DNA of 64,000 nt from Psammoneis japonica (Eukaryota), in contig QPGO01000050.1 in assembly GCA_008632985.1 (NCBI GenBank), forward strand, positions 1 to 64,000, read 5' to 3'. Shown here in pieces: positions 19,933 through 64,000 of this stretch (positions are counted from its first letter, which is position 1; each line of letters begins with the position of its first letter). A program made the translations under genes and the position numbers. The notes beneath the pieces were generated by a model. That model did not search any database, was not told where the DNA came from, and saw only the letters and a program-made list of their open reading frames with translations.

Positions 19933-20648
19933 GCGACACGCCTGAAGCAGTGCGGTTGTTCATACCGGTATGGTTGATACTGGTGAGATTTCTTATGTAC
20001 GTACGCTCTGCTAGAAAGTAGCAAAGCTCGACAATGTATCCAGGGTAGCAATCGAACTAGAGTCCAATTGCCTGTATTTCGCGAACCATCATCCAAGCTA
20101 CTGAAAAAACCTTATGCGCATCTACAGGCTTCCTCCACTCTTTAGTGTATGCTCATTCCTACTCTCTAGAGTAGATATTAGACGAGACAAAGAGATTCAA
20201 GACGTTTCGACGGGGAGGAAATTATGGTTACGATTCGTGTGCGTCGAAATATTCAAAGCAACCACGGCACAAGCATGACAGAGGAGGCTCAACGTATCGC
20301 ATCCACTCTGGAGGGAATGAACGTGACGCAAATTCGCCGCCACGCCAGGAAAAAAGCTAACACTCAGGAAAGAAGCCAGGCCGATTCTCTATGAAGACTA
20401 CAACTCGAACGACGAGAGTGACGAGTCGGCGACGTTTCCCACTATGAAGAAATCTATGCCATCTTTGTCAACACCGGTTCCTTGCGGACGAAAGACAATC
20501 TCTAACTTCAAATGACGAGAATGAAACGCGAGTCGCAAAAGTTCAAAGCTTCGGCACACTAATTCATTTATAGTCTGAAAAGGAATAGACAGTGCTTTTG
20601 ACAATGACAAGGATTGCCACAGTTTTTTTTAATTTCTGGAGAGCCTTC

Positions 20649-20981
20649 TGAATTCTATGATGATTCGGTGAGTTGGTCGGGACTTGCTGGTTCTTCACTT
20701 GGTTGCCCCACCATGGCGGATCAAGACATGGCACATGCCTCTGGTTAGACAGTGGAATTCTTCCGCTTGACTTCTCCTCCACAATGATGCAAAATCACAT
20801 TGAACTCTGTGACTTGGTGAGTTGGTCGTGACCTGCTGGTTCTTCAGTTGGTTGCCCCACCACAATGAACCCTGACATGGTGTGTACCTCTGATTGGGCT
20901 GCAGAGTTTCCCCCCTTGACAAATCAAATTGAACCCCATGACTCAGTGCATTGGTTGCAACCTGCTGGGTTCTTCAGCTGG
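20649..20981 (+). repeat. Three degenerate ~130-150-bp direct repeats
   Basis: The core 'gttggtcg..ac.tgctggttcttca.ttgg' occurs in copies beginning near 20649, 20801 and 20930; the third copy is partial. Confidence 0.8.
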
Positions 20982-21946
20982 CAAATGCCTCTGACTGGTC
21001 AGATGGCAGAGTTCTTTGCTGCTGGAACTGTGCAAGTGTGCCTCTTTGTGCAGATCATTTTGCAGCAGCCCATTGGCCCTTTTTGAATCTTTGCTTCACA
21101 AGCAAAAGACCACAAAATGAACCTGCCAGAGTCTTTGCCATTGCACGCCAACAAAGAAAAGGCTTTTCTTGTCCTTGAGAACTCATCAAGAAACTTGCCA
21201 TTCTTGTGCCTCTTCTTCTTCTTCTTCTTCTTCTTGCTCTTGTGACACAAATGCCTCACCACCACTTTTTTCCTCATTGAGCAATCTGCCCCAAGTTCTT
21301 GAAAGGTCATCTGAGTTCACTTTGTGAACTTGTTCTGTGAGATTTCAAATTGTCTCCACTGACTCGTGATTGACACATGTTCCCCTGGTGCAAAAATTGT
21401 CTTTTGCCCACAGAGCTCAAGTGCTTGGCTCTGGCAGCTGTTTCTTTTTCTCCTTTCTGATTTTTTGGCTCATCTTTTTGAGCAGAGCTGGCATTGCTTT
21501 CTTTCATTGGTGCTGCTCCACTCAATTTTTTGCAGAACTGTGAACTCTCAACATCTGCTTTTGCTTTCCAAGCAATTGCCAGTCTTTCTTTCTGCCTGGC
21601 CAGGAGAGCAAGGTCCTCAAGTGTGCTGCTCCTTTTTTGTTGTGGTTGGCTCTGACTTGTGAAGAACATCATTGAATTTTGTTTCCAAAAAAAGAAAATG
21701 TGGTGAAGGAAATGGCATGGTGCTCTGGTTTGTCCCATGCGCAACAACAAAAAGTTGATGCTTGCAAACATTTTTTCAACCAGGGCTCTGTTGACATCAA
21801 ACACAACAAATGCAAAAGGAAACATCATCTGTGATGTGTGCTTTCTTGTGCAACTCTGTTTCTCTGGGAGAACTTTTGCAACTTTCTGACCTTGTCACAA
21901 GGCATCTCTCAACACAAAAAATTTCCACACAGAGGTTTTTGTCTTT

Positions 21947-22448
21947 AACCCTTCAACCACTGGACTTGAGCAAATCTCCGCGGGTGGAGATTTGCTCCTT
22001 TACATCACAAATGCAGCAAAATGAGTGATTTCAGACATGAACAACATTTTGTTCGCGCGATTTTGTTTTGGAACGCGCACTCACCAAAAATCTGGGGGAG
22101 CCCTTTTTGTAATTTAGAAAGTTCAATGTCAACTTTTAACACCGGGTTTTTTGCAAGCTTCATCCATGGACAGAGAGGAACTAAATCTCAACCTGCAACA
22201 ATGCAGGTTGTCATGAATTGCTGTCACAAATGGAGCAATGATGCCACACCCTTGGAGCAAATCTCCGCCGGTGGAGATTTGCTCCCAACAAGTGAATGCA
22301 CGTGGCACACTTTACGTGGATTCTACGCTGCATGACATTTTCATGCTGTGTTCATTGTGTTGTCACAAAAGTGCATGACACATCACAAATCCTCAAGTGG
22401 AGCAAATCTCCACCCATGGAGATTTGCTCCCCTGGTGGTTGAAGGGTC
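21947..22448. repeat. Inverted repeat pair with three GAGCAAATCTCC-N6-GGAGATTTGCTC palindromes (possible transposon end)
   Basis: Palindromes at 21968-21997, ~22254-22285 and ~22399-22430. 'aacccttcaaccac' (21947) is the reverse complement of 'gtggttgaagggtc' (22435-22448) with one mismatch. Confidence 0.8.
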
Positions 22449-22504
22449 AAGAGATGAGAATTTGTGAAGAACAAGATGAGCTGGCAGCTTGGCTTGACAA
22501 TGAA

Positions 22505-22672
22505 GAGGGGCAACAGCTTCAAGATGGAAGAGGACAAGTTCAGCAGAGCAAAACTTTGCAAGGTTGCCCATGATCTGAGAAATGTGAAGAGAGGCAACAG
22601 CTTCAAGTGGATGGCAAGGACAAGTTCAGCAGAGTGACACTTTGCAAGGTTGCCCATGATCTGAGCAATGTG
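22505..22672 (+). repeat. ~85-bp tandem duplication
   Basis: 'ggcaacagcttcaag...aggacaagttcagcagag..a.actttgcaaggttgcccatgatctgag.aatgtg' occurs twice. Confidence 0.85.
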
Positions 22673-24521
22673 CACAACATCTGTGACAGGCTCTTCCCGT
22701 TCATGGCACCTGGTGAAAACAAAGTTGTCTTTGAGAGTCTTGTTGACAAAAGGAGCATCTTGAATCTCTGAAAGGGGCAGAGATGCATGGAGATGGTGAG
22801 CAGTTGTGTGCATTGGTGCACAACAGCAAGTGCCAGCAGAAGTCCATTCCACCATCCACCACATTGACCTTGGGAAGAACTTTTCCCCAGTTGGAGAGAA
22901 CAGTCATTGACCAGTGGATCTTGAGATGCTTTCTGCTGCAAGCATCATGTGGTCCACAGCCAACACATTGGGAGCACTGGGGCCATCGAGTGTCCTCTCC
23001 AGTGCATCCATTTTACATGTTCAGGGGATGCAAGTGGGGGAGAAGCTCCAAAAGGAAAAATGGGTTAAGCCTGAGTGGGATTGGTGCTCACATCAACAAT
23101 GCAAAACCTGTGGGAGACAGCTGCTCACACACAGAATGAATCATGAAAAGAGATGACCTTCAAGCAACCCTCAGCCAGAGCTCACAATGGACAAAAATGA
23201 ACAATGGAAAGGAAAAAATTGAAGTGAAAGACAGAAAGCAACAGTTTCCAACAACTTGAGGAGCTGGCTTTTTCGAGCAGCAAATGGAGCCAGGATGTGT
23301 CCACAGACTTTTAGAACATCATCCATGTCTGAAGTGAAATTGTTCAGCACATTGACCCTTGATGGCATTGGGTTGGCAAAGGCACTCAGAAGCCAAGCAG
23401 CAAAACAGACCACAATGATTGTCTGAGAATGCCTTTTTGACAACAGCCAGATGAAGAGTCAAGACTTGGTCAAAGATCATCACAGACATCCAGACCAAAC
23501 AGGAAAAATGTGGTCAACTGGTTTGGATGACTGATGAGCCACATGAGCTGGACTTGGGGGCTTCATCATTGAAACAACCAGTTTTCAAAAAAGCAACAAC
23601 ACAGGCCATTTCAAACAGCAAAGAGAGCCAGGATCATCATGTGCTTGCAGGACCTTCAGAAAATCATCCACAGTCAGTGCCAGCAGCAAGGTGCCAACCA
23701 TCACAAGATGCCAGAGACTGCAGCTGCATAAAAAAAACAATGAGAAAGTTGTTGAGTTGACAGCCTGATGATTGTGCCACAAACTGGTGCAAAATTGGAC
23801 CAAAGTTGTGCAGAAATGTGTTTGATTTCAGTGCTGAAACATCGACATCTGCAGTGTATGGCTTTGCTCTTGATGGGAAGATCAATCAACAACTCCTTCC
23901 ACCAGCGTCAGTCAGATTGCACTCTCCAGAACCCAATTTGCATTGTCAAGCAGCCCTTGCAATGATGGCCACATTGTTGCTTGATCCCAGCCATTGTTTG
24001 CTCTTCCTGTCGCCATGAATGCTTGTCAACTGACTTGACTTTGGCATCACACCCACAATTTGACAATTTCCAACATCAACCCAGACCACAGCATTGGTCA
24101 ATCTGCACTTCATTGAGTGCCTCTTTGAAGCTGACAATTGGCAACAAATGCACTCTCAAAATTTGTGTGGCATGCAACCAACAAAGCTCAAGAACCTCAC
24201 ATTTCTGACTCACATCCCAGCCAATCATCCCACAAGATCCACTTTTGCTTGAACTTTAGATCAGGACAAAATGATGGAGAACAGATCACCCACTCATCAA
24301 AGTTGTTTCTTGCTTCTAGCAAAGAGAAACTTGTCTCAAAAAGATGCTGCTGCAAATTTCTCCATTCTCCTCAAGACATTTTGCCGCCACAAAACTGCCC
24401 CATGTTTCTCTTGGAACTCCCAGCACATTGCTTTTTGAAGTTTCACTCACCTGCTGCCACTCAGAAATCAAACCTTTGAACAAGTCACTCTGGTGGAGTT
24501 TGGAAATTCGAGGTTGCTGCA

Positions 24522-24738
24522 GTTGGGGACAAGGCAACATGGGGCCACAACACCACAAGATCAACCTTCTCTCACAGTGCTGCCTCCTGCAGGGGTCCAC
24601 CAGAGACCACCAGCACCCTCAGCTTGTTGTTGTTTGTTTGGTTGACAAGTGCCATTGTGGGCCCACCTTTTGCTGTGAAGTTGGGAAGTTCAAGTTTGCA
24701 CCAACCTGTTGGGGACAAGGCAACATGGGGCCACAACA
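24522..24738 (+). repeat. 31-bp exact direct repeat
   Basis: gttggggacaaggcaacatggggccacaaca at 24522-24552 and 24708-24738. Confidence 0.85.
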
Positions 24739-27497
24739 GCACACAGTCTCTGGGGGCTGCTGCCCTGGCTCTTTGTGGGCACACATCAAGTGCTGCAGCC
24801 ACGCTGACCCAGTTGACCTCTTGCTTGACCAGCTCATTGTCTGTGATTCCACCTGCACAAGACCAACTCCACAACCTCTTCTGACCTTCTGCCTGCACCA
24901 AGTTTCAACCATGATGAGAGCACAACTTCAACAAAGGTTGTTGTGCATGTGTGTGTGTGTGTTGGTTGCAAAGATCAGCTGCCACAGCAGCCTTCCTGCA
25001 CAAACAAACAAACAAACAAACAAACAAGCCACGTGGGTCAGCAGAAATGTGAAAATTTTAATGTCAACAAGAGCCAGTTGAGATCACAAAAACTGACACA
25101 TCAGTCTTCTTCAAAAACAGATGCACTGCATCTGATTGAAACAATGTTCAACATGTGTCCAGCTTCCAAACAAAAATGAGAGCTCACAGGCAAAACACTT
25201 CAGCAATGAAGACCAGTGAAATGACTCGCTCAAGTTCACTCAAATGATTTGAAACTTTGAAAGCATGTGCAACGAAAGGCTTGAAAATGGAAAGGGCGCA
25301 TCACTGCCACACAAAGCAACACAAAAATGAAGGATGCACATCCACACAACAGCACACAAACAATGACAAACTGGCTGCCAACACAAAGAGAAGTCAACGG
25401 CAGCAAGTCAAAAGTGTGACACTGGAGCAGGCAGCTTGCAATGAACAACAAAGCAACACTTTTCTTTTGCACTCAACTCATTTCTTGAAACCAACACAAG
25501 TTGACAAAAACCGCCAAGAAGGATGAGAAACAAAGTGCCGCAACATTGTGCACAGGCAAGCAGAAACAGCAGCATTGTGCCACACTTGCCAAAGAAAACA
25601 TGCCAAACTGACAATTTCTTTGCTGTCTTCTGCCAGGGATTTCTGTCATTTCTCACAATGAAAAGCTGTCACAAAAACCAAATCTCTCTTTGAAACATGA
25701 AAAGGATTGGAGAACAGGACACATGATGCCACAGCACAGCTGAGAAAGAACACCAAGATGCAAAACAGACTGCAAGAGACAGCTGGGCCAACAATGGGAC
25801 AGCAGCTTGAAGAACAGAGGGATCAAAGCCAGGCAACAGAGTGACACAGTGTGAAATGAGAGCATGTGTCAAATGTCAAACATTGTCAGGGTAGAAAGCA
25901 ATCACTGCTGGATGCCAAAATCACAGGGCTCGCTCCAATTGACAAATGAGCAAATCAAATTGTTGGTGAACTCCAGCCAACAAATGACCACAATTGATTG
26001 GATCAACGTGGGTGGCTGTGTGTGCACAGAAATGAGCCATGCATTTCATTGATTGTGTTGTTCTTTCCTGTTTTGTCAACTTGTGTGACAACAGACACTC
26101 TGACACCTGCAATTGTTGTGCCATGATTCTTGAGTTCAAAACAAATCTTGTCAAGAGCCCACATGCTGTGAGACCAAGTTTTCTTGAGTCTGGTTTCCTG
26201 CTTTGCCAATGCAGCCAATTGTCAAAACTGATTTGTTCACAAGCAACAAAGGAGCACTTGGCAAGAACACAGGTGTCTTGTTGAGCAATTTTCAACTCTG
26301 AACAAGAGCACCAGCTGCACTTTCCAAACAAACAAATGCAGGGTGTCAGCACTGCTCCTGGTGTGCTGTGCTGCAAGTTCCCATCTGGAGCTGAAACTCT
26401 CATTTTGTTGGGTGCACCAGGCTGTGCAGGCAGTTTGCTGGGTGAGAAACTTCTGGACAATTTGTGTGGTTTTCTGTGAATTTCTGTGACAGATGCAACT
26501 GGCACTGCACAAGCAAATCGAGCTCAAAAATGAAAGCGATTTTTTCTTCATGTCTCTCATGTTGCAAATTGTCAATGTGGGTGTGGTGCTGTGCTGCTGT
26601 CCTCATGAACTTACTCACTCTCAAACCAACAGCCTGCCGAAAAGGCAAGAAGGGCGAAAGTGGGTTGGCTGGGCTTGTTTTGTGCCTTGCTCCACACAAC
26701 AACCTGGTTGACATTTTGAGTTTTGTTGCCATTTGTTGGGTCTTGCAGAGAGCTTTTTGACTTGCTGTGCATGGCATTTGAGAAGTTTCCTTCTCTCCCT
26801 CAGATGACATTCTTCACAGCCCTCAGCTCCGCTGACTTGATGCTGGCCACAAGCAAAAGTTGATGGTGCGCACATGATGGCTGGCACACTTTTCTTTGAA
26901 ATGTGTTGACTGAACTTTGAGTTGTCATGGATGGATGATGCCTTTGCTTCATTTGATGGTGGTGAGTTGCACAAACCCACTGATTTTTTGTCATGGACAA
27001 AAGAGCAATTTTGGGCTCAGCTTTGAGAGTGTCAACAATGACTGAGAAGAGCCCAAACAACAAGCACATGTTGCAGGTCCAATGTTTCAAAGCAGATGAG
27101 TCTTCAGATTGGCTGACTTGACTTTGGCTGCGGCCCTTTGTGGCCAGCACACATCTTTTTCTCCTAGAACAAGCATCTTGGAGCAATGATGGATCGGTCG
27201 ATCTTGCAGGGACCTCCATTGATGTTTGATTGCCAGGTGCCAGGGGATCGAGTGAGCCAGTCGTCGTCATCCTGTGCCACGTGGATGGAGACGAAAAACT
27301 GGCGCGCGGTCGATCGGTGCATGGTGAGTGGTGGGAGTGACGTGTTACAGTATGCGTGCGCGCTTTTGCGCTTTCTGCTCTCTCCCGCCCTCTGCCGCAC
27401 GATGTTGCCGTCAGCCATCAGTGTGTGTTGTTCTCTGATGAGACCTTCTGCTTTCGACACTCAACCGGTCTTCTTATTGCGTGCCGTAGCAACAAGG

Positions 27498-34399: not shown

Positions 34400-35450
34400 C
34401 ACTTTCGCCACTCCTCTGCCGTGTGTCACAGCTTTCTCGTGCCATTTTCTTTTTCCCATTGCACTCACTTTTGCGCTCTTTTCATCGACTGCTCACTCTG
34501 CTCATTCCTTGTCATCAACCAAAGTCTTGCCAAGAACATGTGCCACCACTGTCACACCACAATGACAGCCCTGAAGAAAGAAAGAGGATGACTGCTTGGT
34601 CACGACAACAACCACAAGTGTGGCCCCCTCATCTGATGGCCAACTTCTGCTGCCACACCTTGGCATGCAATGCTGCTGCATTTTGGGGTGGGAAGATCAA
34701 AGCAACAGCAACAACATGAGATTCCCAAAGTTGTTGAGTGGTCACTGCACCACAAAGAACACACTTTCTTTTCAGTGCACAGAGAGTCAGCCGCGCGAGA
34801 TTTTTTTGTGGCTTTGGCACAAAGAACATGTTGTGTGCACGATGTCTCTCCACAAAAACAATGTCAGAGACCCAGCAGGTGCAGCTGGTTGAATGCACCA
34901 GAGGAAAACACCAACAAAAAACATGGTTTCCTTTGTGCTGCATGGGTGGTGGTCATGGGATCAGCACTCAACAAGCTGGCACACAGATCCTTTGGTTGAG
35001 TGCAGGAGCAGCAGCTGCTGCCACCTCAAGCAGCCTGAGGCACTTGACAGTGGCGCACCTTTTTCTCATGAAGGCAGGTGCCAGTGCCCCATGTTGCTGA
35101 TGTGACAGAAACCTCATTTGCAGCATTGGCCAACAATGTGAGCCGCTTCTTGGCGGGGCCTCAATGGCTGCAAGATGCTGACAAGCTGAGCAAGCAGCTG
35201 CAGCTTCCTGTGCAAAGCCATGCACAGTCAGTCAAAGACAAAGGTGCTGCAAATGGACTCCAGGCCAGAGAGCAACATTAAATTTGTGTCCCACCCTCCA
35301 AACTCAGCTGGCAATGCCCAGCCACTGACTTTAGTTGCACAAGAGTTCTGGGGCAACTTTGACACACACAAAATGGAGACAACACATTGCTCATGAACAA
35401 AAAATGAGTGCCCTCAAGACTTGGAAAGTTGCTCATTTTTCTTTGAACAG
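34400..35450. other. CpG- and TpA-depleted hypermutated domain 2 (~1 kb)
   Basis: Only about two TA in ~1 kb (TTAA ~35279, TTAG ~35332). Few CG apart from a CCGCGCG patch at ~34791. Confidence 0.85.
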
Positions 35451-46262: not shown

Positions 46263-46413
46263 ATTCAGTTTATCCTCCAATGATATCTGGCGCTACAATA
46301 CTCTGTACAGTAGAGAAGGAAAAGAACCTATTCGTTAGATCAGAACGAGACTTTGATTTCGCTGTGCTAATGAATAGCGCCATCTCATGGCGGACATTCT
46401 CTCATCATTCTTT

Positions 46414-50330: not shown

Positions 50331-50630
50331 AACAAGAGCATCTTCTCGACCACGGTTAACGATGGAGACTACGTAAGATGTGCAAGTTTCAAGTTGCTCT
50401 CCATGCTGCTCTAGTACAGTAACGAACAGCTTCCGTCCGAGGCGAATTGGGCACTGTCCATTCATGTATTGAATTAGGTCGTTCAACGAATCGAAACGCC
50501 AGAGAGACTTGTTAGCTACACGGTATATGTTATTGGCAAAGTTACGCTACAGTAGCACGCAAGCAATCATTCCCATCAACAACACGCGCGACTCAGCAGG
50601 TACAATTTCTCTCGTCACTCGCTTTCACTC

Positions 50631-51358
50631 TCATTCAACGACTGCTGGTGGTGCTCTTTTAATGACTTGATCCATATCACCAGGCGCAAAGATATCCCTT
50701 CCATCGTTCAAATGGATCTTATATGGTGCCCATGAATTCGCCGGCCAGTTAGGCTCACGATACCATAACTGTACAATTTTTCCAGGTGCCCATCCAGTCA
50801 CAGCATCTGGTCCAATGCGGCACAAAACGTCGTCGCCCACCTCGAAACGAAGCCTAGGTAAATTCGTTTCCGTATCCCATTCAGGTTCTGGTGGCCAATC
50901 CGCTTCTTCACCCCGATGCCATTTTTCTAAAACGTCTTGTGTGGGGAAATTTTCCTTCAATTCTTCTTCAGTGACATCTTTGGCTTCCATTGGCAAACCC
51001 AGCATACCACGACCGCCACTTTTCTCATCAAAGTTTTGCATTGTTCAAAATTCAAGACACGATTTCGTGGGGGGATTACAGCAAAGAAAAAAAGCAAGAG
51101 GTATGTAAGGTCGCTGAATCACGACAACCATCTCAATCCACCACTGTATTGCTCGTACCTTTCAAAGACAATTGTAACGAGTGTATCGATAGGGGAACAC
51201 TGAGGGTCACCACATTGAACTTCTTGAACTGCCACCGTACATTCGTTCCGCAGATTCTCTGGAACTGAATTCAAAGTCAATTGCTCAACCCGTTCACACG
51301 CTTCGCGGGATTCCTTCTTTTTCTCCTGCTCTGCTGCTTGGTTCTGTGGCAGAAACAT
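50631..51358 (-). CDS. Hypothetical protein (2 exons) with a C-terminal 'LRFxVGxxVxCR...W..G...APY...DG..IFAP' module
   Basis: ORFs 51119-51358 and 50631-51041 join through a predicted intron at 51019-51158. Confidence 0.7.
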
Positions 51359-51804
51359 CGTATTATGAACTTGTAAGCAGCTAATAAGAGAGGGTAGCAG
51401 AGTATTGTAGTTGTATGGAGAAGCAACAACAATCAGTCAGCCAAACTCTGTCTTGGCTGGGTCTTTCTCGCTTCTCGCACCGCGCCCCGCAGTGCGACGT
51501 GCGACGCGTGACGCCGTGTCCCGTGTGAGCGAGCGCGTGTAGTGTTGCACGCATGCGATGACGGACCGGACCTGATTTTTCATTTTCCATCCGTTGAGTG
51601 ACGTCATCAAGAGGGGAAATGAACTGTAGTTCCGTACGTGGGTTAGTACGAAAAGTGCTCAGAAAAGAGGTTGATTTCCCCCCTCTCTTCTCCCCTTGCA
51701 GGTCGGGTGTTGGGCATTTGCCCATGACGCCCGCACACACTACCGAGAGTCATTCGCCGACGACATAGTACACCGCAACTAGAAAGTTCACTGACACCAT
51801 AAAG

Positions 51805-54627
51805 ATGGAAAAGCAAGGCGAGTTGGGAGAAGGGGTTACTCCGGAGAAAACAGTCGCTGCAGATGCCATAGATGGACTTGCTTCTGACAGAGCTCCATCC
51901 GATGAAAAGAAAACCGAGACCGATGCCACGGTTAACGTGTTGGATCAAGCGCAGCAGGAGCCCACCGTGGCGCAACCTAGCGCTGAATATGACCTGCTGG
52001 GCTTTTCATCGGAAACTGCCTCTACCGAATCAAAGCCTGCCGTAACCAACTTGTTGGATTTTACGACGCAGAGCAGCACTGAAGAATCGTCGCAACCTTC
52101 CCATACTCCCACGATGAATGCAACGTTGCCAGGAACGGAACCTTCTTCTACAGAAGTTGGCTTGTTGGATTTCAGCCACGACACTGCTGCTAACGACGGA
52201 GTGAGTCGAGGGCCAGCTCCATTCCAAAACCATGATTCAGTTGCGCAGCCGTCGAGCGAATCTCCAGAGCACGGAGGTGAAGATCTGCTTGATCCGATGA
52301 AAGACCCGTCGGAAGATGCGGGTTCTTCGTCCGAGAATCGGAGTCAATCAAAAGAGAAACTTCCAGAGAACCAAGAATTAGATAAGGCTTCTGCTCCAGC
52401 CGATAAGGTGCCAGAATCCCTACTGAATAATCAAACAAAACAGCCATCCCAATCCGCCTCCTTCTCCGGAAGCGTTGAAGTGAAAGATCGCCCTGCCAAA
52501 GAACTGCGAGCGCAACAAGAAATGGTATCCGCTACTTCGAAAGAGACGGAAAAGATAAATGAACAAGCGGTCGCCCCACCCACGAGTAGCCCTACTGAGA
52601 GTCAAGCATTGCCGTTGCCCGAAGCTGAACCTTTGGATGCTGGAGCTTCAGGTCGAGCAGAACCGGATCACCCAGTGTCTCCGGCTGTCAAGGCAAAAGA
52701 ATCAAATGATAGTGGAAACGGGCGGGTGTTGGATACATCCAATTTGAGTGTAACCGTGGAAACTGAGAGCGCAAACGTACATGATCAGTCTCTTGCAGAG
52801 TCTCCATCCGCTGCACCCGCAGAAGTTGCGAAATCATCAGAGGAAGGGACTGACATTGTACCTGCGGAATCAGAGCCTCAACGCAGTGAAATGGACGATG
52901 AGATAGCGAAACATAAAGTCCCACAACAAGCAGAACCAGATACCCCTTCAGTCCCATTCGCAAACGAAGAAGACTCAGAGAAGGGGCGAAATGACGGGGC
53001 GAATCAAGCAACGCAAGCAACAGTAGAGAGAGTAGACGATGGAGCAAATTCGAGTGTCGGAACGGATGAAGCAGCAGCGGCGGCGGCACCACCTATCGAC
53101 AGTGCTGTCAAGAATATATCGACGGAGAAACAATGCGCTGACGATACTGCTGCTAAGAAATCTCCAAAACAAGACGAGCCCATCTCTTCAAGCTCGAAGG
53201 ACGATGCTACAGCCGAGGTGATTGCGCAACTCCAGGCTTCTCTAGATGATCAAGTGCGACGACGGACAGAAGCGGAAGAGAAAGCGAAGCATGCGGAAGA
53301 GCGTGTAGCTGAATGCGAAGAGAAGCTGGAGCAGATGGCGGGGTTAGAAGAAGAAATTGAACGGCTCAATGAGAATATAGTCGAGCTTGTCTCAGAAAAG
53401 TCTAACCTGGAGTTTGAGTTAAGTTCGATGGAGCAGTCCCGTGACGAGCACGAACGAAAAGCTAACGTGCTATCCAATCGTCTGAACGCAGCCAAGAAGA
53501 AGGAGGGCGTAAAGGCCAACCTGGCCGAGCAACTCGAGGAAGAAAACGTGGAATTCCAGTCACAACTAGAAACGCTGCAGAACGACCTAGCGACAATGAG
53601 CACTGAAAAGGAGAGTTTAGAACTGGAGATGGAGGCATTGAAGAAAAAGTGTGTTGACAGGGTCAAGGCTGCAGAATTGTCGCTTGAAGAAGAGCAGCGC
53701 TTGAACGAAGAACGAAAGAAGAAAATGAAGCTCTTCATCGAGTCCAAGGCGGACGAGTTGAGGGTTGCGAAGGCTCATAATGATGAGCTGCAAGTGGAAG
53801 TGGAACAAACGCAGATATCATTGAGAGAAACAAATGATAGGTGGAAACAGCTTCATGCCCAGTGGGTCCAGTCACAGACTCGCAACCGCGAGTTACAGCG
53901 TGATTTGAACCGTATCAAGAAGGACTCTGACAACTTACACAAGATCGGAGATAATCTAGAAATGAAACTAAGTCGGTCTGCTCAAGAGACGGAAGAGCAC
54001 AAGAACAAGCGTTTGACGGCCAAACATGAGCTTATGACGATTTTAAGAACATTGGAAGCGGAGCGCTCTGTCAGTGGAAAACTACGAGACAGCATAAAGT
54101 TCACTTTCACTCCAAAAGCCCTGAGTCAACAGCAGCTTTTGAAGGAGAGTCTGCAAGACTTCGAAGCCGAGCTCGTGAAGTTAGCTAGACGAGTAGGCAA
54201 GCCACTCCCTCCACCACCAACGGATTCTCCACATTTTCATGACAATGGCGGACCGATTTCTCCACCAAAAAGCGACGAGGTGACAGGTGGAGGTGCTGTG
54301 AACGATGGGAGTAGCACCGATGAGTCGGGGACCGACGGTGGCAAGAAGAATAGATCTGAAATCGATTCGAATCATCTTCTTTCAAACTTGGAGAATGAAA
54401 CTCAGCGCGTCAGCCAGTGCATCATGGCGCTCATCTCTAATGTGGAACGAATGAATGTATTGTTGCACGAGGGAGATCGCACGTGTATGACGGCGTTGTC
54501 AGACCTTCTCACAGGCGTGCAATCTGCACAACAGTCATCTCATGAGGAAACTACGTCCATAACTGGCGCTGCCAGCCCGCGAACACGGCTTGGAATGGGC
54601 CCCTACGCGTCGGTTCCTCATAGTTGA
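51805..54627 (+). CDS. Large acidic, disordered N-terminus + long coiled-coil protein
   Basis: Intact 940-aa ORF with repeated 'LLDF/LLGF' motifs (clathrin-box-like) in the N-terminus and ~300 aa of heptad repeats. Confidence 0.8.
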   Translation: MEKQGELGEGVTPEKTVAADAIDGLASDRAPSDEKKTETDATVNVLDQAQQEPTVAQPSAEYDLLGFSSETASTESKPAVTNLLDFTTQSSTEESSQPSHTPTMNATLPGTEPSSTEVGLLDFSHDTAANDGVSRGPAPFQNHDSVAQPSSESPEHGGEDLLDPMKDPSEDAGSSSENRSQSKEKLPENQELDKASAPADKVPESLLNNQTKQPSQSASFSGSVEVKDRPAKELRAQQEMVSATSKETEKINEQAVAPPTSSPTESQALPLPEAEPLDAGASGRAEPDHPVSPAVKAKESNDSGNGRVLDTSNLSVTVETESANVHDQSLAESPSAAPAEVAKSSEEGTDIVPAESEPQRSEMDDEIAKHKVPQQAEPDTPSVPFANEEDSEKGRNDGANQATQATVERVDDGANSSVGTDEAAAAAAPPIDSAVKNISTEKQCADDTAAKKSPKQDEPISSSSKDDATAEVIAQLQASLDDQVRRRTEAEEKAKHAEERVAECEEKLEQMAGLEEEIERLNENIVELVSEKSNLEFELSSMEQSRDEHERKANVLSNRLNAAKKKEGVKANLAEQLEEENVEFQSQLETLQNDLATMSTEKESLELEMEALKKKCVDRVKAAELSLEEEQRLNEERKKKMKLFIESKADELRVAKAHNDELQVEVEQTQISLRETNDRWKQLHAQWVQSQTRNRELQRDLNRIKKDSDNLHKIGDNLEMKLSRSAQETEEHKNKRLTAKHELMTILRTLEAERSVSGKLRDSIKFTFTPKALSQQQLLKESLQDFEAELVKLARRVGKPLPPPPTDSPHFHDNGGPISPPKSDEVTGGGAVNDGSSTDESGTDGGKKNRSEIDSNHLLSNLENETQRVSQCIMALISNVERMNVLLHEGDRTCMTALSDLLTGVQSAQQSSHEETTSITGAASPRTRLGMGPYASVPHS

Positions 54628-54873
54628 AATAGCGGCTGCGACAGTTTCAGTAGTCAAGGCCCATTCTAGAGCTGTTAAAAAGCGACGACGCCGAATGTAC
54701 AATAGGAACTAAGAGCTTGAAGCGATTCGTTCTGACTCTGGTTTTATACACTGATTATTTCGCTTAAGAAAATCAGAATGTTTTCCCACGAGGCCACAAT
54801 TAACTACTTAGACCTGGTGGGAGATATCGTTCCTTTTCGATGATTCCGTCGTTGTCGCATATCATTCGCGTCT

Positions 54874-55218
54874 TCACTTCCCCTTCTCGATTTCCAGGTA
54901 CTGCTCGAAGTCGATCGCTTGAGTTCCTTGCATTTCCTCCAACGGGAGGAAGTCGCTTCCACTCTCGCTTGAATCAGTAGAAGATGTACTGATAGATCGA
55001 GTTGATACTTGGGCAAACACGCGACCGTTCGCTTCAATATCCACCTCGCCGTTCGATGAAAAAGACGAGCAACGAGACGTGTGGCGACGAGCCTTTCCTC
55101 TTCGTCGGCGCTTGTTGTTTTCGCGGGGGGTCAGCTTGGCGCGACGCACAGTGCCCTCGTTTGCAACCTGTCCAATTGTGTCCAGAACATCACTAAAAAG
55201 CCATTTGATATCATTCAT
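54874..55218 (-). CDS. Small hypothetical protein
   Basis: 114-aa ATG-initiated ORF with plausible composition; no family recognised. Confidence 0.35.
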   Translation of the reverse strand: MNDIKWLFSDVLDTIGQVANEGTVRRAKLTPRENNKRRRRGKARRHTSRCSSFSSNGEVDIEANGRVFAQVSTRSISTSSTDSSESGSDFLPLEEMQGTQAIDFEQYLEIEKGK

Positions 55219-55629
55219 TTTAGACTTGAAGACGGGAAAAATGAAACGCTAAGCTTTGTTGACGGAAACGAAAAGTGATACCAAATAATCTTCACGATCA
55301 AAAACGAGGGCAGATCCGAGACCGAAAAGTCTCAACTGGACATCCACCGCGTGATTGATGGTAGGCTATTGCAAAAAATGTCAATGTGGGACTTTCCAAA
55401 ATAACAAAATGTTTTTATTTAAGAACCATAAATATTTGTGCAAAGATATTAATACAAATATAACAAGCCCTTCTTATCGGAGACACATTTATTATAACAC
55501 ACCACTATCAAAAATTAGAATAGACACCAATCCCGTAGATGTCTTTGCGATGCTCCAAATAATGGTCGATTTTAGACGGCTTTCAGCCGTGATGAACGAT
55601 TGTTTATGCAAGGGGTTTATGAAACGGTG

Positions 55630-58600
55630 GTTTTGAGAGTGAAGTGACAAACCTCCAGTTTGCAGGGCCGAGTGAGGAGCTCTCAACATCCTCTGAGCAA
55701 AGAGTTGGTTTTGGGGCAATGGCAGGTGTGTGAAACTTTGAAGTCTCGATCAAGTGCTTGGGTCGTCGCTCAGAGACAAGCTGCGCTGGTGCTCCTGGCT
55801 GTGTGCCTCAAGAGACAAAACAAAAGATGTCAAATGCTGATGCAGGAAAAAAGTTGGCTGATGCAGCTTGAGCAATGAATTTTTTGTGCTTCTGCAGCAC
55901 CGCTTCATGCACAACAATCAACCATCATGAATGGCAGCTGCCAGAGGTGCATCATCAAGGGTTCTTGGTGTGGTTGTCAAAAATCCCTGGCAATTGGCAT
56001 GTGCTGGGAGAACTCTGTTGTCGACATCCACATGGCAGCACCAGCAACTTTGAAGAAGCTTTCATGCTGGGCACAATGGTGTGTGTTTGCAATTTAAAGA
56101 GATGTCAAACACAGCTCGCACACAACATTGTGAATGTGTGTGTTGACGTTGGAAGCATGGTGGCTGCACAACATTCCCATGTCAAGTTTTTGGATCTTGA
56201 GATGTTGTTGCAACATCAAAACATGTGCTCAGCTGCAAGTCATTGCACATTAAAGCCCAAGTTGCACACAAGCAACTGCGCCACTTCTCAAGCTGGCTCT
56301 TGCTTGAATGTCATGTTGCTCAAGTTCCACAAACATTTTTTTCATTTTGGCAGCACACATCAAACACAATGGAGCAGAAGCTGAGATGCAAAGTTGACTC
56401 AGCTCATTTGGCAGAAATTCCAAGTGCTTTTTTGATGCCATTGCTTGCACGCTGTCCTCCTGCAATGCTGGTGTGCAGCCACATCTCACACTCCTGATTG
56501 CAACTGGTCAATGTCACACTTTGAAAAGAGCCATTTGTCAACAAAGGGCAACAATCAGAGCTCAAGCAATTGCAAACACTTGGCTCTTCTGAGCTGCCAC
56601 AGCTCTTGTGGGCAGCCAAGTTTTTCAAGATTTGGAGCTTCAAGGCAGTGAGCACACCATCTTGCTGAGCTGCTTCTGCTCCAGGCAGAGTGGACAAGCT
56701 TTCAAACTGGCCTCCCCAAGATGTTGCACTGCAACAAAGAACCAGAGGAAGAAGAGAGCACATGATGGAGCTGCTTTGCCACTGCTTTTTCAGCAAAGAC
56801 ACTCTGAACAAGTGCTGCTGATGTGACACAATTTGTGAAAATGCAGTGTGTTGCACTTGCCCCCTGAGTTGGTCACACCTGAAAATCATTGAGACACAGC
56901 CAATTTTCTGAATGCATTGCATGCTTCCATGCACACTTCTGTCAAAACATGACAGCACATCCTGGCAGCTGGTGGTGCATGACCACAGCTGACTTGTGGA
57001 GTGCTTTTCTTTGGCTTCATTCTTGGATGCATTGCTGCAGCAACTTCTTTGTCACCCAGTCTCTGCAAGACAAGCCCAAAAGCTGTTGACCTTGTTTTCT
57101 GATGGAAGCTGCGGCATGATCTTTCTCTGGCAAGAGACTTGTTCCTTTTGTTTCATGTTTCTGGCCAAACTTCTAAAATGGCCAATCTTCAACCAGCTTT
57201 TCTGTTCCAAAACTCCAGTGTGTTGCAATGCCAGGCACTTTGTCCACAATGCAAAAGGCATTTCTTTGCATCCTCTGCTGCACTGCCATGCTTTGAGCTT
57301 GTCTCATGTCATGCACTTGCAGCATCAGCAAGGGAAGTGGACCACAGCCATGCAAAAAAATTGGCACACTCAGAGAGGCAAACATGTGAAAGTCCAAAGC
57401 AGGGGCACCTCACACAGCTGCCTTGCTTTGAGGTCAGGGATGCGCAGGGGTGAGGATTGAAATTTTTCATGGGCCACAGATTTCCCTCACACTTCACTGT
57501 GTTGTTCTGACCTCCCCAGGAACACCCCCAAACACTTCTGCATTTGTCAAATCCTTGTTGGGGCTGTTGAGCCACTGTGACAGCTGCACATTTGAAGCTT
57601 CAAATGCACCATTCATCAGCCTGTGCCCTGTTGTTGGGTTGAAATTGCTGCCAATTTTTGCTGAAACATGATGTCTCTCATGGGGGATGAGTGGCACCTT
57701 CTGGGAACCTCAGACATGTGGCACATTTGACAGGCCATTTGCACATCTGCAGTTGCCAAGGAAGGAGCCAAACACCATGCATGGTCATGAAGTCATGACT
57801 TGTCTGTGCACTTTGTTGTGTCTCATAAAATGGACAAAGTTTGACCCATTGCCAGAATTTTAGTCTTGGAACATGCAAGCATTTGGTGCAATGCATCCAG
57901 ATTTTTCTCAAAAACATTGCACACCTGCAAACATCATCTGCCTTCACCCCTGTGGATCCACCCTCAAGGGCACATGCAGGAACATCCAAAACCTTGTGTC
58001 TGTCAATGCCATTCTCCAATTAGCTGAGTGTGGTCAATGCCAGCAAACAAAGACACAGAAGAACACCTTGTGTTGCAAAGCATCAAAAAAAGGTGAGCAG
58101 CAAGAGGAAACTCTGCCCCCCTCAAGTGTGAGTTGGCATGACTGCTTGAAATGAGAGTCAAGGGAAGTGACCACAGCTTGGTGAAAACACATGAGAGCAC
58201 TGTCATTTGCACTTCATTTCTCCAGGTCTCCATCATGGCTGCACTGAACAAACTTTGGAAAAGTGGGCAGATGACAAAGGATTTTGTGTCAACAAATGAT
58301 GTGAAAGTGACATTTTCCCACAAGCGTTAGAATGTCTTGAACAAGGGGGGGGCAAACAATTGCTTTGGAGGCAACTCAAATCAAACATTGATGAGTGCCC
58401 CACCCCACATGCAGATGTGCACACAGATGCCAACAAGACAAGTGCCAATGGTTGCACTTCCTCATCCAACAAGATGTGCTGCCCTGACCAAAAAGCAAAC
58501 AACTTGGAGCTTGAAGAAGAGCTCTTTTGGTGGTTGTCCAATGTGCTGAAGAACATGTTGGTTTGTTGAGTGGCAAGGGGGGGCAGGTTTGTGGACTCAA

Positions 58601-61600
58601 GGAGCACAGCTTGTGGCAACTTTAATGCAAAAGCACAACATTGAAGCATGTGACAGGCATGTGGTGTGTGTGAGGGTGCATGTCTTGGACACTTGAGCAA
58701 TCATCTCCAAAACAGTGGTCGGAGAGCTGTCTTTGAACACGGTGCAATGCACAGCTGGGGTTGTTTTTAAAATTGGTGTTTCGCTCCTTGAGTTCTTTTG
58801 GCAGGTGCAAAGAAGTGGGCTTTGGCTGACTTGGCAGCACAGAGAAAGCAGAGTTCTCAGACTTGGCACTGAGGAGGAGGGCAAACATGGTTTGCAGCAT
58901 GGGGGCCAGCAAAGTGGCACATTGGCGCAAACCTGTGGGGGGGCATGTGGCATCAGGATGATCTGCTGATTTAGCAGCTGCCACAGAAGACAGCACCCAC
59001 ATTTTGTCCACACAGCATCAAGGCCACAAATGTCATTTGGCTTGATGACATGCACCGCACTTGACTTCTGGCAGCAAAATTGCACACGGAGCTCATCAAG
59101 ACAAAACAGGCACATTCTTAGAGGGCAGGACATGCAGCATTGCTGCACATGAGTTTCTTTGAGAAGCTCAGTTTTCTGACAGCAGAGCACAGCAGCCCCC
59201 CACCACAGGATTTGGCAAAAGGCATGCCACTTGGGTGCACTGGCCCTGCAAGTCTGGCGGATCAAGCTGGAAGGTCATGAGCTTTGGCATCAGGGAAGGA
59301 AGGGTCATTGGCATGTTGTCAATGAGACCATGGTCTTTCAGAACAGTGGTGTGTCAATTTTGAGGCAGCCACCAATGTCACCTCATTTGTCAGAGATGTG
59401 GGTGCACCCACTCAAATCTTTGGCATGTGCTGGTTGATCTTGTCATCTGGTGGGGGGTCACACACAGGTTGGGCCATTGTGTTTTGGTGTGCACACAAAA
59501 TCAAGCAATGGTGGGTGAACGCTCATTGCATGTTGGCTGCTTGTTCAAACTGGTGTTTGCATGTGCAGCAAGAGCACAAACCAGGTGCAATCAGCATCTT
59601 TGCCACTGAGTGTGGTTTTCAGTGTTTCAGTGCAGCATTTGTTGTGCAGCCCAAATCACTGCCAAGGAAGAAGTTGATGCCCTTTGGCAGCTCTGCAAGA
59701 GAAAACCTCTTGGCACCACAGCATGTTCTTGGCAAGCCAGTGCACAAAACCAGCTTGTTGTTCAAAGTTTTGCTTAAAAAGGACAGATGACAGCAGCCCA
59801 TTGGAGAGTGCCAGAAAAAGAAATTGATTGCGTCATTGTCTTGCTGCTGCCCACACCAACTCCTCTGACCACCCACATTCCCCAACACACAAAAGGGCAG
59901 CATGGACAATTTGAGCACTGTTTGGCACATTGTCGTGAAACAATGCCTGCCACATGCTGCAGTTCCAGCAAGCTGCAACAGTGCCCAGTTGAACAAGCAA
60001 GCCTGGTCACACTGCATGGGACAAGCTGCCAAAAACAAAGAACATGCTGCAGAAAAACTGAGCTCAGCAGGAGTCTCCAAGAAAGATGCAGTGCTTGAAA
60101 GGATGAAAAAATGCACTTCCTGGGACAAACATCTAAAGGAAAGTCCAACAAGGACAACAATGGTCAGGAGAGAAAATGCCTTGACACTGGCACACAATGA
60201 ATGTGCTGGAAAGTTGTGCTGAGCCAGAGTGACAAATGCAAAACCAGCATCAAGCGGCAGTGCATCAAGGTGTGTCCAATTGAGAGCACTCTGAGGCCCC
60301 TCTTTGGGATGCCAGGTGACAACCTTTGAGAAATGAAAGCCAGCTGCAAGAATGCTTGGAATGAAAAAGTTGGCAAGAAGCAAGATGACAAAACCTGCCC
60401 ATTGTTGTCTCACAAATGTGCCCAGATGTGCAGAATTGAGCTTGAATTTTGCACTGAAAGGCTGGTGCAAAAGGAGCTGAAACCATGCGGAATTTCACTT
60501 AGAGAATGCACTTCAATCTGGAATGAAAATCAAAGAGATTTGACACCATGGCATTGCCAAACCCACCAAATGCAGGCACAACAAAGCATCCCTTCAAAAC
60601 CCTTGATGTTTTGTTGTTGGCACAACTGCCTGACACTCCAACAGGCCCGGCAGAGAGCCGCGCCCACAAGGGACAATTTCTTGGGTGCTGATGTGAAATT
60701 GTGCCCATGAGAAGAGAGTTCTTGTGCAAGAGCATGGAGATCAACACATGGCTTGCTTTTTTTCATTTGTGTCCACCCTGCTGATTGAGCCAGCTTTTTC
60801 ACTGAAATTTTCTCACTTTGAATGTGGGAACATGGGGGGGTGCTTGTGCTTGACAGACTGCCACCATGCTGAAGGCAGAATGACAGTCTTGCCCTTTGGC
60901 ACATCAGCATTTTCAACAATGTGCCAGTGTTTTCCACAAGTGTGGTCTTGTTTTCTTTCACCATGGCCTTCTTGAGCTCACAAGCACTGCACTTGCAGAA
61001 AGGAGCTTGAACATGCAAAGAGTGCCCAGGTTGTCAAAGGCTTTCATGCTGTGCAGAGTGGCACATCCTCCAACTGGCTGCATGCAGAAAAATGTCTGAA
61101 ACACCATGCCATCAAAACAAAATCACATCATTGTGGCCAATGCCATTGTGAAGGGGTGGCACACGTGGATGAAAAAACCTCTTCTGGGGATCAAACAGAG
61201 TGTGTGTGCCTTTTCTTTCAAATTGAAGCTGTTGCAGACAGTGCTGCTGGAACCCAGAGCTGCTGTGCTGATGCAGTCAAAAGTTCTGGAGCTGGCATGA
61301 CTGGTGTGGAATCTTGCAGATCTTCTGGAAGACCTGCAGCTAGAAAGATGCAAAGTGCAGCATCTTCTAAAGGCAAAGTCAGGAAGCAGAAGATCTGTGG
61401 GAGAGGGAGAATCACACTTCTCTTGTTCTCTTGCAGAAACCCAAAAGTTGTTCAACAAGAGGCCCAAGTTTGTCATTGCACAGGTGTGTTGTCTTCTGTT
61501 GCATCATGCTTTTGCTTTGGGATCAGAGCCAAGGATGCATGCACCATGTGCTCCAACATCTCCACTGGAGAAACACTGGTCTCATGTCCAATGAATCAAT

Positions 61601-64000
61601 CAACAAACTGACAAAACAACTTTGTGACCTTTAACTGCATGTGAAGAACTTGCAGGATGATGAGGAGCACATCACATGGCAACCTCCACCAAGGCCCACA
61701 GAGGCACATCAGCCAACTTGGCAGCAGGAGGAGCATCAAGAGTTCACCAAACAACTTTCCTGAATGACAACTTCAGGGCAAGTGACAGAGAGTGCAAGTT
61801 GCAAGCACAGCCAAGGTTGTCTTTTGGAAGAGAGGCAAGTGACCCAAGCCAACTGTTGTGACACAGCAACTGAGACAATTGTGAAGATGGAGTGCCTGCT
61901 TGCTGACAACAGATTGTCACTCCAACAAGCCTCTCTCACAACTTCTTTTGCTGCCTGTGCACATCAGAGAACTGGCAACTGGCATGTCAAGCCCAAGCCC
62001 TGCACTGTCACAAGCTCCCAAGAGGCAGCTGAATTGACAAGCCACCAACTTGCAGAGTGTCAGTCAGCGACCCCAAGGTGAGGTGGAAAAAACAAGAACA
62101 GATGGCATGACACAGCTGAATTTGTGGGTGTGTGCCCAGACCTCAAGGCCACCACAGCATGCAACATGTCATTGCCAACAAGGACACATTCACCAAGACA
62201 ACAAGGACAACCATTGCTGAGCATGTGGGGTGCACCAAGTGTGCTGGTGCAGGAGAGCTGTGCATGGGCATGGCAGAGCCAAGGCTCCCAGCCCTCACAC
62301 TCCACCTGCTGGCCCCACAACCAACCCTTTGGAGGCCATGATTGAGCAATGGAAACTGGCCTGCTGAGCCTGCCATGACAGTGCAAAGTGGAGACATGCC
62401 AGCACCTCAAGGGATTTTGCTCTGGCACTGGGGCAATGCTCCCAGACTGCAAGGAACAGGGTGGAGGCCGCACATCAAGATTGGCCTGTGGTGAATGCAG
62501 CCTCTGATGTGACAGAGCTGCTGGCTGCAATCAGGGCCTGCATGGCTCAATGCCAGACTTTGCACTGCCACCCAGTGTGCATCATCATCAAGGCCAAGTT
62601 GGCTTCTTGCTCTTCAAGCAGGGAAGGCACACATCCACCAGAGATGGCTGTTTGATTTGATGCCTGCAACTGCAACAACAGCTCATTGTGACTTGAGTGT
62701 CCCCAGCTCTTGAAGATGCCTGAAATGTTGCCAATGAGTGCAACAAGACGGCTGACACCCAAAAACACTTTTTCATTGGGATGGAGAAACAATGCTTGCT
62801 CCCACCACTTTGTGCCTCAAAACAGCACAGCCCATGTCACGGGGAGAAGAAAGAAACACATCAAAACATTTAAAATGATGTTTTCAGACAGACAAAGCTG
62901 AGCCAGACCCTGATGGTCTGCATTGGAGGGGGGGAGAGGTCCAGCAGCGCAGTCACCAGCAACACTGGAACAAATTTCATTGATCTCACCCAAGAGCTTC
63001 TTTCCCATCAGCTGCACAGAACAGGCCATGCAGAGTGACCCCAGCTCTGGACAAAGAGCCAACCTTTTGGCCAGAGATGTGAAGAAGTTGCTGGGCACAA
63101 GTCAAAGCAAAAGCCACATGAAAGTCAAGGTAAAAAATGCTGAGCACTGACAAATGGTCTTGCACTCTGCAAGCAACAGTGCATGGAAATCCCTTCCAGT
63201 GTCCCCCAGTGAAATTTTCCATGTGCCCAATCCACAGAAAGAGCAGAAATGCTGGAAAACAAAGGAAATGAAATTTGGGTGATGCCTCTCCCAACACTGC
63301 TGTGCGGAGTGACTCAAAGACCAGTGGTGTCATTGAAATGACACCAACAATGTCCTCAGGGGATGACCGCAGCCATGGCATGTTGGAGCCGTCCCAAGCT
63401 TTTCCCATCATGATGTCACTCCAGCCCCCAACAAAGTGCTCTGTTTCATTCTGGTTTTCATCTTGAGCTGTTTCTGTTGACTGTGATGTGACTTGGGCTG
63501 CAGGTGGCTTTCTCTCATGACTTGCTCCTTGTTTGGCTGAGTCACCACACTTGAGGAGAGAGGAGTCATCATGTGTCACATGTTTGCTCAAACAACATGG
63601 CAAGTCGCCAGAGCCACAAGGAGACATCAGCACAAATGAAGGCATCAGAGAAAGCACAATCCCAGGGATGGAGCTGTGCCATGCATGGGTTTGTTGCACC
63701 ACTTGCACATGGTGTTGAGCACAAAATGCAAAGATGCATGATGCACATGGTGGCAGGAGCTTTGTGTCTGTGCAAGGGATTTTAGAGGCAGTGCAAAACA
63801 TTTGAGTCAGAATGTTTTGATGTTTGGCACTAAAAAGGGGCTGCATTTTCTGCTGAACACAAAACCTTCAAGCGACAATGACACACATTGTTGTTTTGTG
63901 GAATTCCGCTGGACACAAAACAATCATTTCTTAACAAAAATCACGTGTTGGATTTCACACCCATGCAAGCCATCAAGCAAGCTTGCAAGGATGCTGTGTG
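55630..64000. other. CpG- and TpA-depleted hypermutated domain 3 (continues past the window end)
   Basis: Only about 20-25 TA by eye in 55800-64000 and few CG, with TG/CA strongly enriched. ORFs are nearly Tyr-free; e.g. 59619-60470 has no Tyr in 283 aa. Confidence 0.92.

Follow-up and report, generated by a model that had tools for sequence, protein, structure and literature searches.

A localised mutator that turns TpA into TpG or CpA was first reported in 2026, from one rhizarian alga. In the preprint on this alga, Bigelowiella natans (Mettrop et al., bioRxiv 10.64898/2026.01.13.699255, cited here from its main text), two integrated viral regions took 231 of the 302 new mutations; 230 of these 231 were A>G or T>C, and all 230 lay on TpA. 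Mutation rates in the viral regions were ~6e-7, about 1000-fold above background per generation, and only in some lines. The same genome holds 124 clusters of windows poor in TpA and rich in CpA+TpG, and the authors propose an ADAT2-like DNA adenine deaminase; the main text of the preprint mentions neither CpG nor diatoms and gives no flanking-base preference. Here we describe a window of 64,000 nucleotides (positions 1 to 64,000 of contig QPGO01000050.1, assembly GCA_008632985.1, Psammoneis japonica) in which three discrete blocks have lost nearly all of their CG and TA dinucleotides, with TG and CA in excess.

Other systems that act on CG or on TA are also known. In diatoms, CG methylation of transposons and repeats depends on DNMT5a (PMC9998398, in the part of its text available to us). 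In dinoflagellates, a TET/JBP homologue makes 5-hydroxymethyluracil (5hmU), a base that is linked to transposon silencing, and prefers the T in TA and TC (PMC11572971, likewise in the part available). A mutation-accumulation study of P. tricornutum names CG, CC and TG as mutable contexts, and neither TA loss nor TpA hypermutation is among the results reported in its accessible text; the accessible parts of PMC9998398 and of the Cyclotella methylome paper mention neither of them.

Loss of CG and TA within three bounded blocks

Dinucleotides were counted over the block cores (20900-27160, 34440-35450 and 55800-64000, together 15,473 nt) and over the flanks (47,907 nt), and are given as observed/expected ratios (o/e). 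In 1-kb windows the three blocks stand out with o/e values of 0.02-0.24 for CG, 0.01-0.10 for TA and 1.6-2.3 for TG/CA (single windows of block 3 having CG values of 0.02-0.13), against values near 1.0 for CG and mostly 0.4-0.9 for TA outside them. The cores hold 88 CG where 856 are expected (o/e 0.10) and 42 TA where 1,081 are expected (o/e 0.039, a depletion of about 25-fold), and TG and CA are nearly doubled (1.90 and 1.81); the corresponding flank values are 0.99 for CG, 0.60 for TA, 1.13 for TG and 1.14 for CA. Each block contributes, with observed over expected counts of 41/321 (CG) and 18/467 (TA) in block 1, 10/61 and 2/65 in block 2, and 37/474 and 22/550 in block 3. These counts agree with the original prediction, made from the letters of the window, which had described three blocks almost without CG and TA, dominated by TG and CA and set among normal flanks. 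Its estimate of 20-25 TA in 55800-64000, where several hundred would be expected, was also accurate: we found 22, against 550 expected from base composition or, by our own arithmetic, about 330 at the TA o/e of the flanks.

The remaining composition is little changed. The blocks have a G+C content of 0.470 and the flanks one of 0.482; pyrimidine-purine steps make up 0.2390 and 0.2395 of all steps respectively, an equality that is expected if only transitions within CG/TA/TG/CA occurred. Beyond the dinucleotide level, tri- and tetranucleotides of the blocks have o/e values of 0.63-1.3 (words with an expected count below 100 excluded), that is, approximately those of a first-order random sequence.

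The stripped composition is not a base-calling artefact, because accurate reads of one sequencing run (X1) reproduce block 3 with two base differences. A single contig assembled from these reads covers 47853-63473 (15.6 kb), crosses the left edge and 7.8 kb of block 3, and departs from the window by these two differences and one 1-nt insertion. The X1 word depth over block 3 is ~65, equal to that of the flanks. Both base differences lie inside block 3, the 7.8 kb of flank that this contig covers being free of them, and both are of the predicted kind (CG/CA at 55999 and TA/CA at 61368; Table 1).

Block edges were located by change-point fits done separately for CG and for TA. The fits (CG/TA) placed the edges of block 1 at 20553/20657 (left) and 27195/27346 (right), those of block 2 at 34323/34395 and 35453/35476, and the left edge of block 3 at 55785/55619, so that at each of the five visible edges the two borders lie 23-166 bp apart. 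The switch from normal to stripped composition is completed within about 100-200 bp. At the left edge of block 3 (55626-55784), TA ends abruptly at 55618 and five CG remain in the 160 bp that follow. Blocks 1 and 2 show the opposite order at their left edges, with CG thinning 70-100 bp ahead of TA.

Outside the blocks, introns and spacers have a normal composition. Five introns (514 nt), delimited by contigs of a second run (X2) that skip them, have o/e values of 0.94 for CG and 0.63 for TA, and the three spacers that touch the blocks have 1.24-1.34 for CG and 0.63-0.75 for TA. The process is therefore local, and a genome-wide bias acting on neutral DNA is not the explanation. The prediction that CG and TA loss are co-targeted is borne out by the shared edges. 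Run X2 is recorded as 'DNA?' and behaves as an RNA library, since its contigs skip introns; they cover 44001-54824 and none lies on 55340-64000, a blank that carries no evidence on expression. Contigs of a third run (X3) do not lie on the window. Duplication alone is probably not the trigger: an 815-bp repeat at 7221-8027 and 46633-47428 (89% identity, overlapping the Prp3 coding region) has normal CG and TA, and its X1 word depth of 192-246 against ~65 in the flanks (3-4x) indicates that it is multi-copy in the genome.

Among contigs of related diatoms (80 loci, 279 kb), only one carries a joint depletion, and a milder one. It lies at 210-1500 of a metagenome contig (L007), in non-coding DNA upstream of a diatom IF-3 gene (73% identical), the rest of the locus being normal; it holds 20 CG against 59.6 expected (o/e 0.34) and 26 TA against 104.7 (0.25), with TG at 1.63 and CA at 1.81. 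This was the only stretch flagged among 396 500-bp windows in 202 kb, and it shows no sequence similarity to the blocks of the window. It is a hint, short of proof, that more than one species has the process.

The direction of change can be read from a dead gene in block 3 (Table 1), a copy of a conserved, uncharacterised diatom membrane-protein gene with a frameshift near 63203-63240 and two in-frame TGA codons (63104 and 62819), each in a column of conserved Arg. We took as ancestral the state shared by 80% or more of the aligned family members, in columns with 8 or more of them, which gave 97 columns, 65 of them unchanged in the dead gene. Conserved Tyr (TAY codons) is kept at none of six columns, four of which now read CAT (two) or TGT (two), and conserved Arg at one of six (as AGG), four of the others reading CAT, CAA and TGA (two). 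Retention is thus 1/12 for Tyr and Arg together against 64/85 for the other conserved residues (Fisher p=1.2e-5), with Trp kept at 4/4, Gly at 10/11, Asn at 4/4 and Ser at 4/4. Single CG>TG/CA steps (7) or TA>TG/CA steps (5) account for 12 of the 32 changed columns. The five TA changes are Tyr>His (two), Tyr>Cys (two) and Val GTA>Ala GCA; the seven CG changes are Arg>His, Arg>Gln, Arg>stop (two), Pro CCG>Leu CTG, Ala GCG>Val GTG and an Asp>Asn following C. The 21 other changed columns indicate that the dead copy is old. Polarising substitutions against aligned copies had been proposed as a check of the original prediction, and the dead gene shows the loss of Tyr and Arg that it implies, with TpA changing in the expected direction (Tyr TAT to CAT or TGT, GTA to GCA).

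Sequence context was measured as the density of each surviving CG or TA tetranucleotide in the blocks divided by its density in the flanks. For TA, survival is 0.52 in TTAA, 0.29 in CTAA/TTAG, 0.09 in GTAA/TTAC and at most 0.05 in the rest, with ATAT, GTAC and ATAG at 0. Per strand, the A of T-A-N was lost in the order N = T >= C > G >> A or, in an equivalent reading, the T of N-T-A in the order A, G > C >> T; the data do not separate targeting of A from targeting of T. For CG, survival is best in GCGC (0.29) and CCGC (0.23) and worst in ACGA (0.03) and CCGA (0.02); W-C-G was struck harder than S-C-G, and TCG/CGA are among the most depleted contexts. The pattern of survival suggests T-A-Y and W-C-G as the target motifs. 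ADAR enzymes prefer a 3' G, and the 3' order found here (T >= C > G >> A) is unlike that preference, while a 5' T holds by definition. A 5' U preference of ADAR-like editing is mentioned in the main text of the B. natans preprint (bioRxiv 10.64898/2026.01.13.699255).

Both strands were hit alike, since TG and CA are interleaved in block 3 in near-equal numbers and without strand runs (runs z=0.18); such runs are also absent from block 2 and weak in block 1. The second, strand-symmetric A>G/T>C process that the original prediction had placed at TpA, on the same DNA as CpG decay, stands on this point as well. In a model, plain 50:50 conversion of flank DNA yields the CG, TA, TG and CA values of the blocks and a G+C content of 0.470, but fails on the raised GC (1.31), the lowered AT (0.75) and the lowered GA and TC. 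We scored on the 12 other dinucleotides a context model applied per strand, which used survivor-derived rates only and set the mutated base next to the influencing neighbour. This model shifts GC, AT, GA and TC the right way and comes to a distance of 0.284 from the observed values, against 0.521 for unchanged flank DNA and 0.39-0.55 for three other assignments.

Contents of the blocks and gene setting

Little in the blocks is recognisable. Among 221 stop-free block open reading frames (ORFs) of at least 48 aa (98 + 123), none matches Pfam at E<=0.005, a few matches at E 0.01-0.05 lie far below the family cut-offs, and no transposon or viral domain was found. Block 3 has no match among 50,697 phage records. 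The longest block ORF (62989-63867, minus strand) has six relatives in 1.84 billion representative proteins (best E=3e-11), which belong to a diatom membrane-protein family of ~350-390 aa that lacks a Pfam entry and is annotated only as 'hypothetical' in Nitzschia inconspicua and Cylindrotheca closterium; this is the family of the dead gene. For the second-longest ORF (59622-60494, minus strand), a word-based search found no homologue. The label of genome defence against transposons, which the original prediction had attached to the process, finds no footing in these contents, the recognisable part of which is a dead host-type gene and a small insert resembling a miniature inverted-repeat transposable element (MITE).

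The MITE-like insert lies in block 1 and ends in 16-nt terminal inverted repeats, TTAACCCTTCAACCAC and its complement with one mismatch, flanked by TTAA on the left and TCAA on the right. It carries three copies of a 32-nt palindromic hairpin, GGAGCAAATCTCC-n6-GGAGATTTGCTCC, that is absent from the rest of the window. From its TTAA target and CCC... ends it may be piggyBac-like. The insert is about half stripped, with 13 CG and 8 TA in 521 bp (~40-50% of flank density), and reads as a later arrival that has been only partly converted; this speaks for a process that works gradually and in place. In block 1, small tandem duplications show one CA/TG double difference and one CG/CA difference, too few to polarise.

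X1 contigs of lower identity (85-95%) align to parts of block 3, which indicates that some of its pieces have diverged paralogues elsewhere in the genome. A self-comparison of the window found no similarity among the three blocks and no long terminal repeats. No block window shows 3-base periodicity, even over the dead gene, so that this test is insensitive to old pseudogenes. Parts of the blocks may be of foreign origin, most of their DNA being too decayed to classify.

Table 1. Positions of the blocks and of other features in the window (X1 and X2, sequencing runs; stretches skipped by X2 contigs are 87-140 nt long with GT..AG or CT..AC ends)
Feature	Position	Strand	Description
Block 1	20590..27165		CG/TA-stripped, gene-free; adjoins 5' side of organellar IF-3 gene
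Block 2	34400..35450		Stripped intergenic 1-kb stretch
Block 3	55626..64000		At least 8.4 kb of stripped DNA; continues past window end
MITE-like insert	21945..22450		~500 bp, inside block 1; terminal inverted repeats, hairpins
Dead copy of conserved uncharacterised diatom membrane-protein gene	62650-63702	-	tblastn with 35 family proteins; frames -2/-3
Base difference	55999	+	Window CA, X1 reads CG
Base difference	61368	+	Window TA (in CTAA), X1 reads CA
X2-skipped stretch	44198-44291		
X2-skipped stretch	45288-45376		
X2-skipped stretch	45556-45649		
X2-skipped stretch	48966-49070		
X2-skipped stretch	51018-51159		

The flanks hold compact eukaryotic genes, including those for WD40 and kinase proteins, a FAE1-type ketoacyl-CoA synthase, homoserine dehydrogenase, IF-3 and Prp3. 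Blocks 1 and 2 are intergenic and block 3 begins ~1 kb past the last recognisable gene. The ketoacyl-CoA synthase fragment is 79-86% identical to diatom proteins (including those of Cyclostephanos, Thalassiosira, Helicotheca and Skeletonema), and the N-terminus of the IF-3 precursor has a signal peptide followed by SASSFAP, which we take to be the diatom plastid-import motif. Judged by this synthase and by the IF-3 presequence, the window is diatom nuclear DNA. An ORF at 38734-40161 (plus strand) fuses a UPF0029 (Impact-type) domain to an AlkB-like 2OG-Fe(II) oxygenase domain, the latter of the nucleic-acid-repair type rather than TET/JBP and without any link to the blocks. Long ORFs of 531, 580 and 952 aa at 16964-19929 and 51769-54624 have strong 3-base periodicity and no Pfam domain; they are likely to be diatom genes specific to the lineage. 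Scans of the whole window for Rfam families and for tRNAs gave no match.

Proposed explanation and its rivals

The reading that we favour, with a probability of about 0.6, is that the blocks are old silent DNA in which two context-specific transition processes share one sharply bounded domain and run far faster there than elsewhere. The blocks would be old non-functional DNA of a diatom nuclear chromosome, containing at least one dead copy of a host gene, diverged pieces of repeats and a MITE that arrived later, and the sharply delimited domain would most likely be methylated and silent. One process would change C to T at CpG, with a preference for W-C-G; its simplest reading is the deamination of 5-methylcytosine (5mC) placed by the CG-methylation system of diatoms. 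The other, distinct from the first, would change A to G (or, equally, T to C) at TpA, most readily in T-A-Y and least in TTAA, and has the same signature as the TpA hypermutation of B. natans. A DNA adenine deaminase, the enzyme proposed for B. natans, is a possible enzyme here too. Acting on both strands, in place and over a long time, the two would have driven CG and TA near to zero and doubled TG and CA. Near equilibrium, the ratios of TG+CA to CG (0.2306/0.0057) and to TA (0.2306/0.0027) would imply per-base losses ~20x and ~40x faster than the opposing background transitions; by this arithmetic of our own, which supposes an equilibrium, the excess is at least a few tens of fold.

Several points weigh against this reading. 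The whole analysis covers one 64-kb window, and the reads come from a single sample that is possibly the source of the window's assembly, so that run X1 is not independent of it. The polarised sample is small (12 Tyr/Arg columns of one pseudogene), and its ancestral states are those of the family consensus, not of the true parent copy. For the other dinucleotides, the context model accounts for no more than about half of the shift (GC 1.20 against 1.31 observed, AT 0.88 against 0.75). No targeting mark is evident, given that none of the 221 ORFs has a transposon or viral domain and that the blocks are mutually unrelated. CpG is not co-mutated in B. natans, so by analogy the CpG and TpA halves may or may not be linked. 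That the blocks are silent and methylated is itself something we infer, as are the enzymes and the presence of two processes rather than one.

A single enzyme system might instead do both, hitting CG and TA together as the two self-complementary pyrimidine-purine steps. It could be a DNA deaminase acting on both A and C, or a 5-methylpyrimidine dioxygenase of the TET/JBP type, oxidising 5mC at CpG and T at TpA to products whose mispairing would give C>T and T>C; oxidised T and 5mC mispair. The CG and TA edges, shared to within 23-166 bp, speak for such a system, and both targets can be read as a centred trinucleotide (W-C-G, and T-A-Y or R-T-A). There are also precedents for either form, in the dinoflagellate homologue that makes 5hmU with a preference for T in TA/TC (PMC11572971) and in ADAT2 enzymes that deaminate A and C in DNA, cited in the main text of the B. 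natans preprint. That same text describes a TpA process that runs without C>T, and a shared chromatin domain explains the common edges equally well, so we regard a single enzyme system as unlikely. Just as tentative is a broader proposal, of chromatin-guided DNA editing in diatoms, and perhaps throughout the stramenopile-alveolate-rhizarian (SAR) group, by which one enzyme family (dual A/C deaminases or 5-methylpyrimidine oxidases) would turn W-C-G and T-A-Y into TG/CA and so destroy silenced DNA for good; if true, it would be the functional mirror image of the repeat-induced point mutation (RIP) of fungi, with the Bigelowiella TpA hypermutation as one of its halves. Error-prone repair would also account for the co-targeting of both signatures to one domain, with T:G mismatches from 5mC deamination recruiting patch repair by a Pol eta-like polymerase. 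The signature of Pol eta is A>G at WA motifs, TA and AA alike, yet AA shows no depletion, its o/e being 1.21 in the blocks and 1.10 in the flanks. TA (0.039) is stripped deeper than CG (0.10), although the trigger vanishes as CG runs out, and the strong effect of the 3' neighbour (TTAA spared, TAT and TAC erased) falls outside the WA motif. TpA hypermutation in B. natans, as its preprint's main text has it, occurs without C>T. Pol eta, a candidate put forward in the original prediction, is accordingly a poor fit, and we consider it improbable.

Less credible again is an absence of any targeting, in which mutation bias would be genome-wide and the blocks the only DNA free of selection. They do look neutral, with no periodicity, a dead gene and a near first-order-Markov composition, but the five introns and three block-adjoining spacers are normal (CG 0.94-1.34, TA 0.63-0.75) and the transition from normal to stripped takes only about 100-200 bp. 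Such discrete, sharply bounded blocks could also be expected of viral or plasmid DNA that natively avoids CG and TA, or of selection against these dinucleotides. Against this, the blocks have no intact genes, no ORF with a Pfam domain (0/221) and no 3-base periodicity; block 3 is unmatched among the phage records; and the sole recognisable gene is of diatom type and has been mutated away from Tyr and Arg codons. We give this origin very little credence. The same holds for a sequencing or assembly artefact from misread modified bases: heavy base modification is plausible in such DNA, and the read sets all come from one sample, but the X1 contig reproduces 7.8 kb of block 3 almost exactly at flank depth, strand-dependent miscalls would yield two half-depth variants per site, which are not seen, and the dead gene also has a frameshift and changes at 21/85 other conserved columns.

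Significance and comparison with known systems

Full-text literature searches found no description of the combined CpG+TpA signature or of TpA hypermutation in diatoms. The original prediction had stated that no description was known; this no longer holds for the TpA half, which is that of the B. natans preprint (bioRxiv 10.64898/2026.01.13.699255), and stands, within the literature searched, for the combined signature and for diatoms. The presence of the same footprint near completion in a diatom suggests an old process with a wide distribution across major marine phytoplankton. What is new here is that TpA loss is coupled to CpG loss within the same sharp borders, that a motif can be read from the sites that survive (T-A-Y, TTAA being spared), narrowing down the enzymes to be looked for, and that host-type genes are erased too, not viral DNA alone. 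If this holds, repeat and pseudogene detection in these genomes is affected, because stripped DNA escapes homology searches, as are models of mutation bias, and a natural A-to-G activity on DNA that depends on sequence context becomes something to seek.

The blocks resemble the decay of CpG in methylated repeats in their directional CG>TG/CA changes and their excess of TG/CA. They differ in that decay alone leaves TA untouched or raised. In vertebrate genomes CpG o/e is roughly 0.2, and the block value of 0.10 is more extreme. With fungal RIP, including its basidiomycete TCG variant, the blocks share local, directional transitions that ruin non-genic or duplicated DNA, and with that variant also the place of TCG/CGA among the most depleted CG contexts. 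Classical RIP, however, turns CpA into TpA and so enriches TA, whereas in the blocks TpA is depleted 25-fold and CpA enriched. RIP is also triggered by duplication. Here the 815-bp multi-copy stretch at 89% identity is untouched, and parts of block 3 do have diverged paralogues. The 5hmU of dinoflagellates is likewise a base-level mark, in a related supergroup, with a preference for TpA. It is a modification and not a recorded mutation signature, and it also prefers TpC, whereas TC in the blocks is only mildly low (o/e 0.91).

The closest likeness is to B. natans. Common to both are A>G/T>C changes on TpA, giving TpG/CpA on either strand, and a restriction to discrete regions of the nuclear genome, and the long-term footprint in B. 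natans, of TpA-poor, CpA+TpG-rich 1-kb windows that are often unannotated, is like that of the blocks. The process there was measured in mutation-accumulation lines of a rhizarian, whereas the diatom blocks are a historical footprint. Depletion in B. natans is milder (region-wide TpA rho 0.45, against a TA o/e of 0.04 in the diatom blocks) and does not involve CpG, for which the blocks have an o/e of 0.10 and seven polarised CG>TG/CA changes. Its targets are giant-virus and virophage insertions, whereas the blocks hold a dead host-type gene and otherwise unrecognisable DNA. Finally, the diatom blocks give a readable T-A-Y context, where the main text of the preprint gives none.

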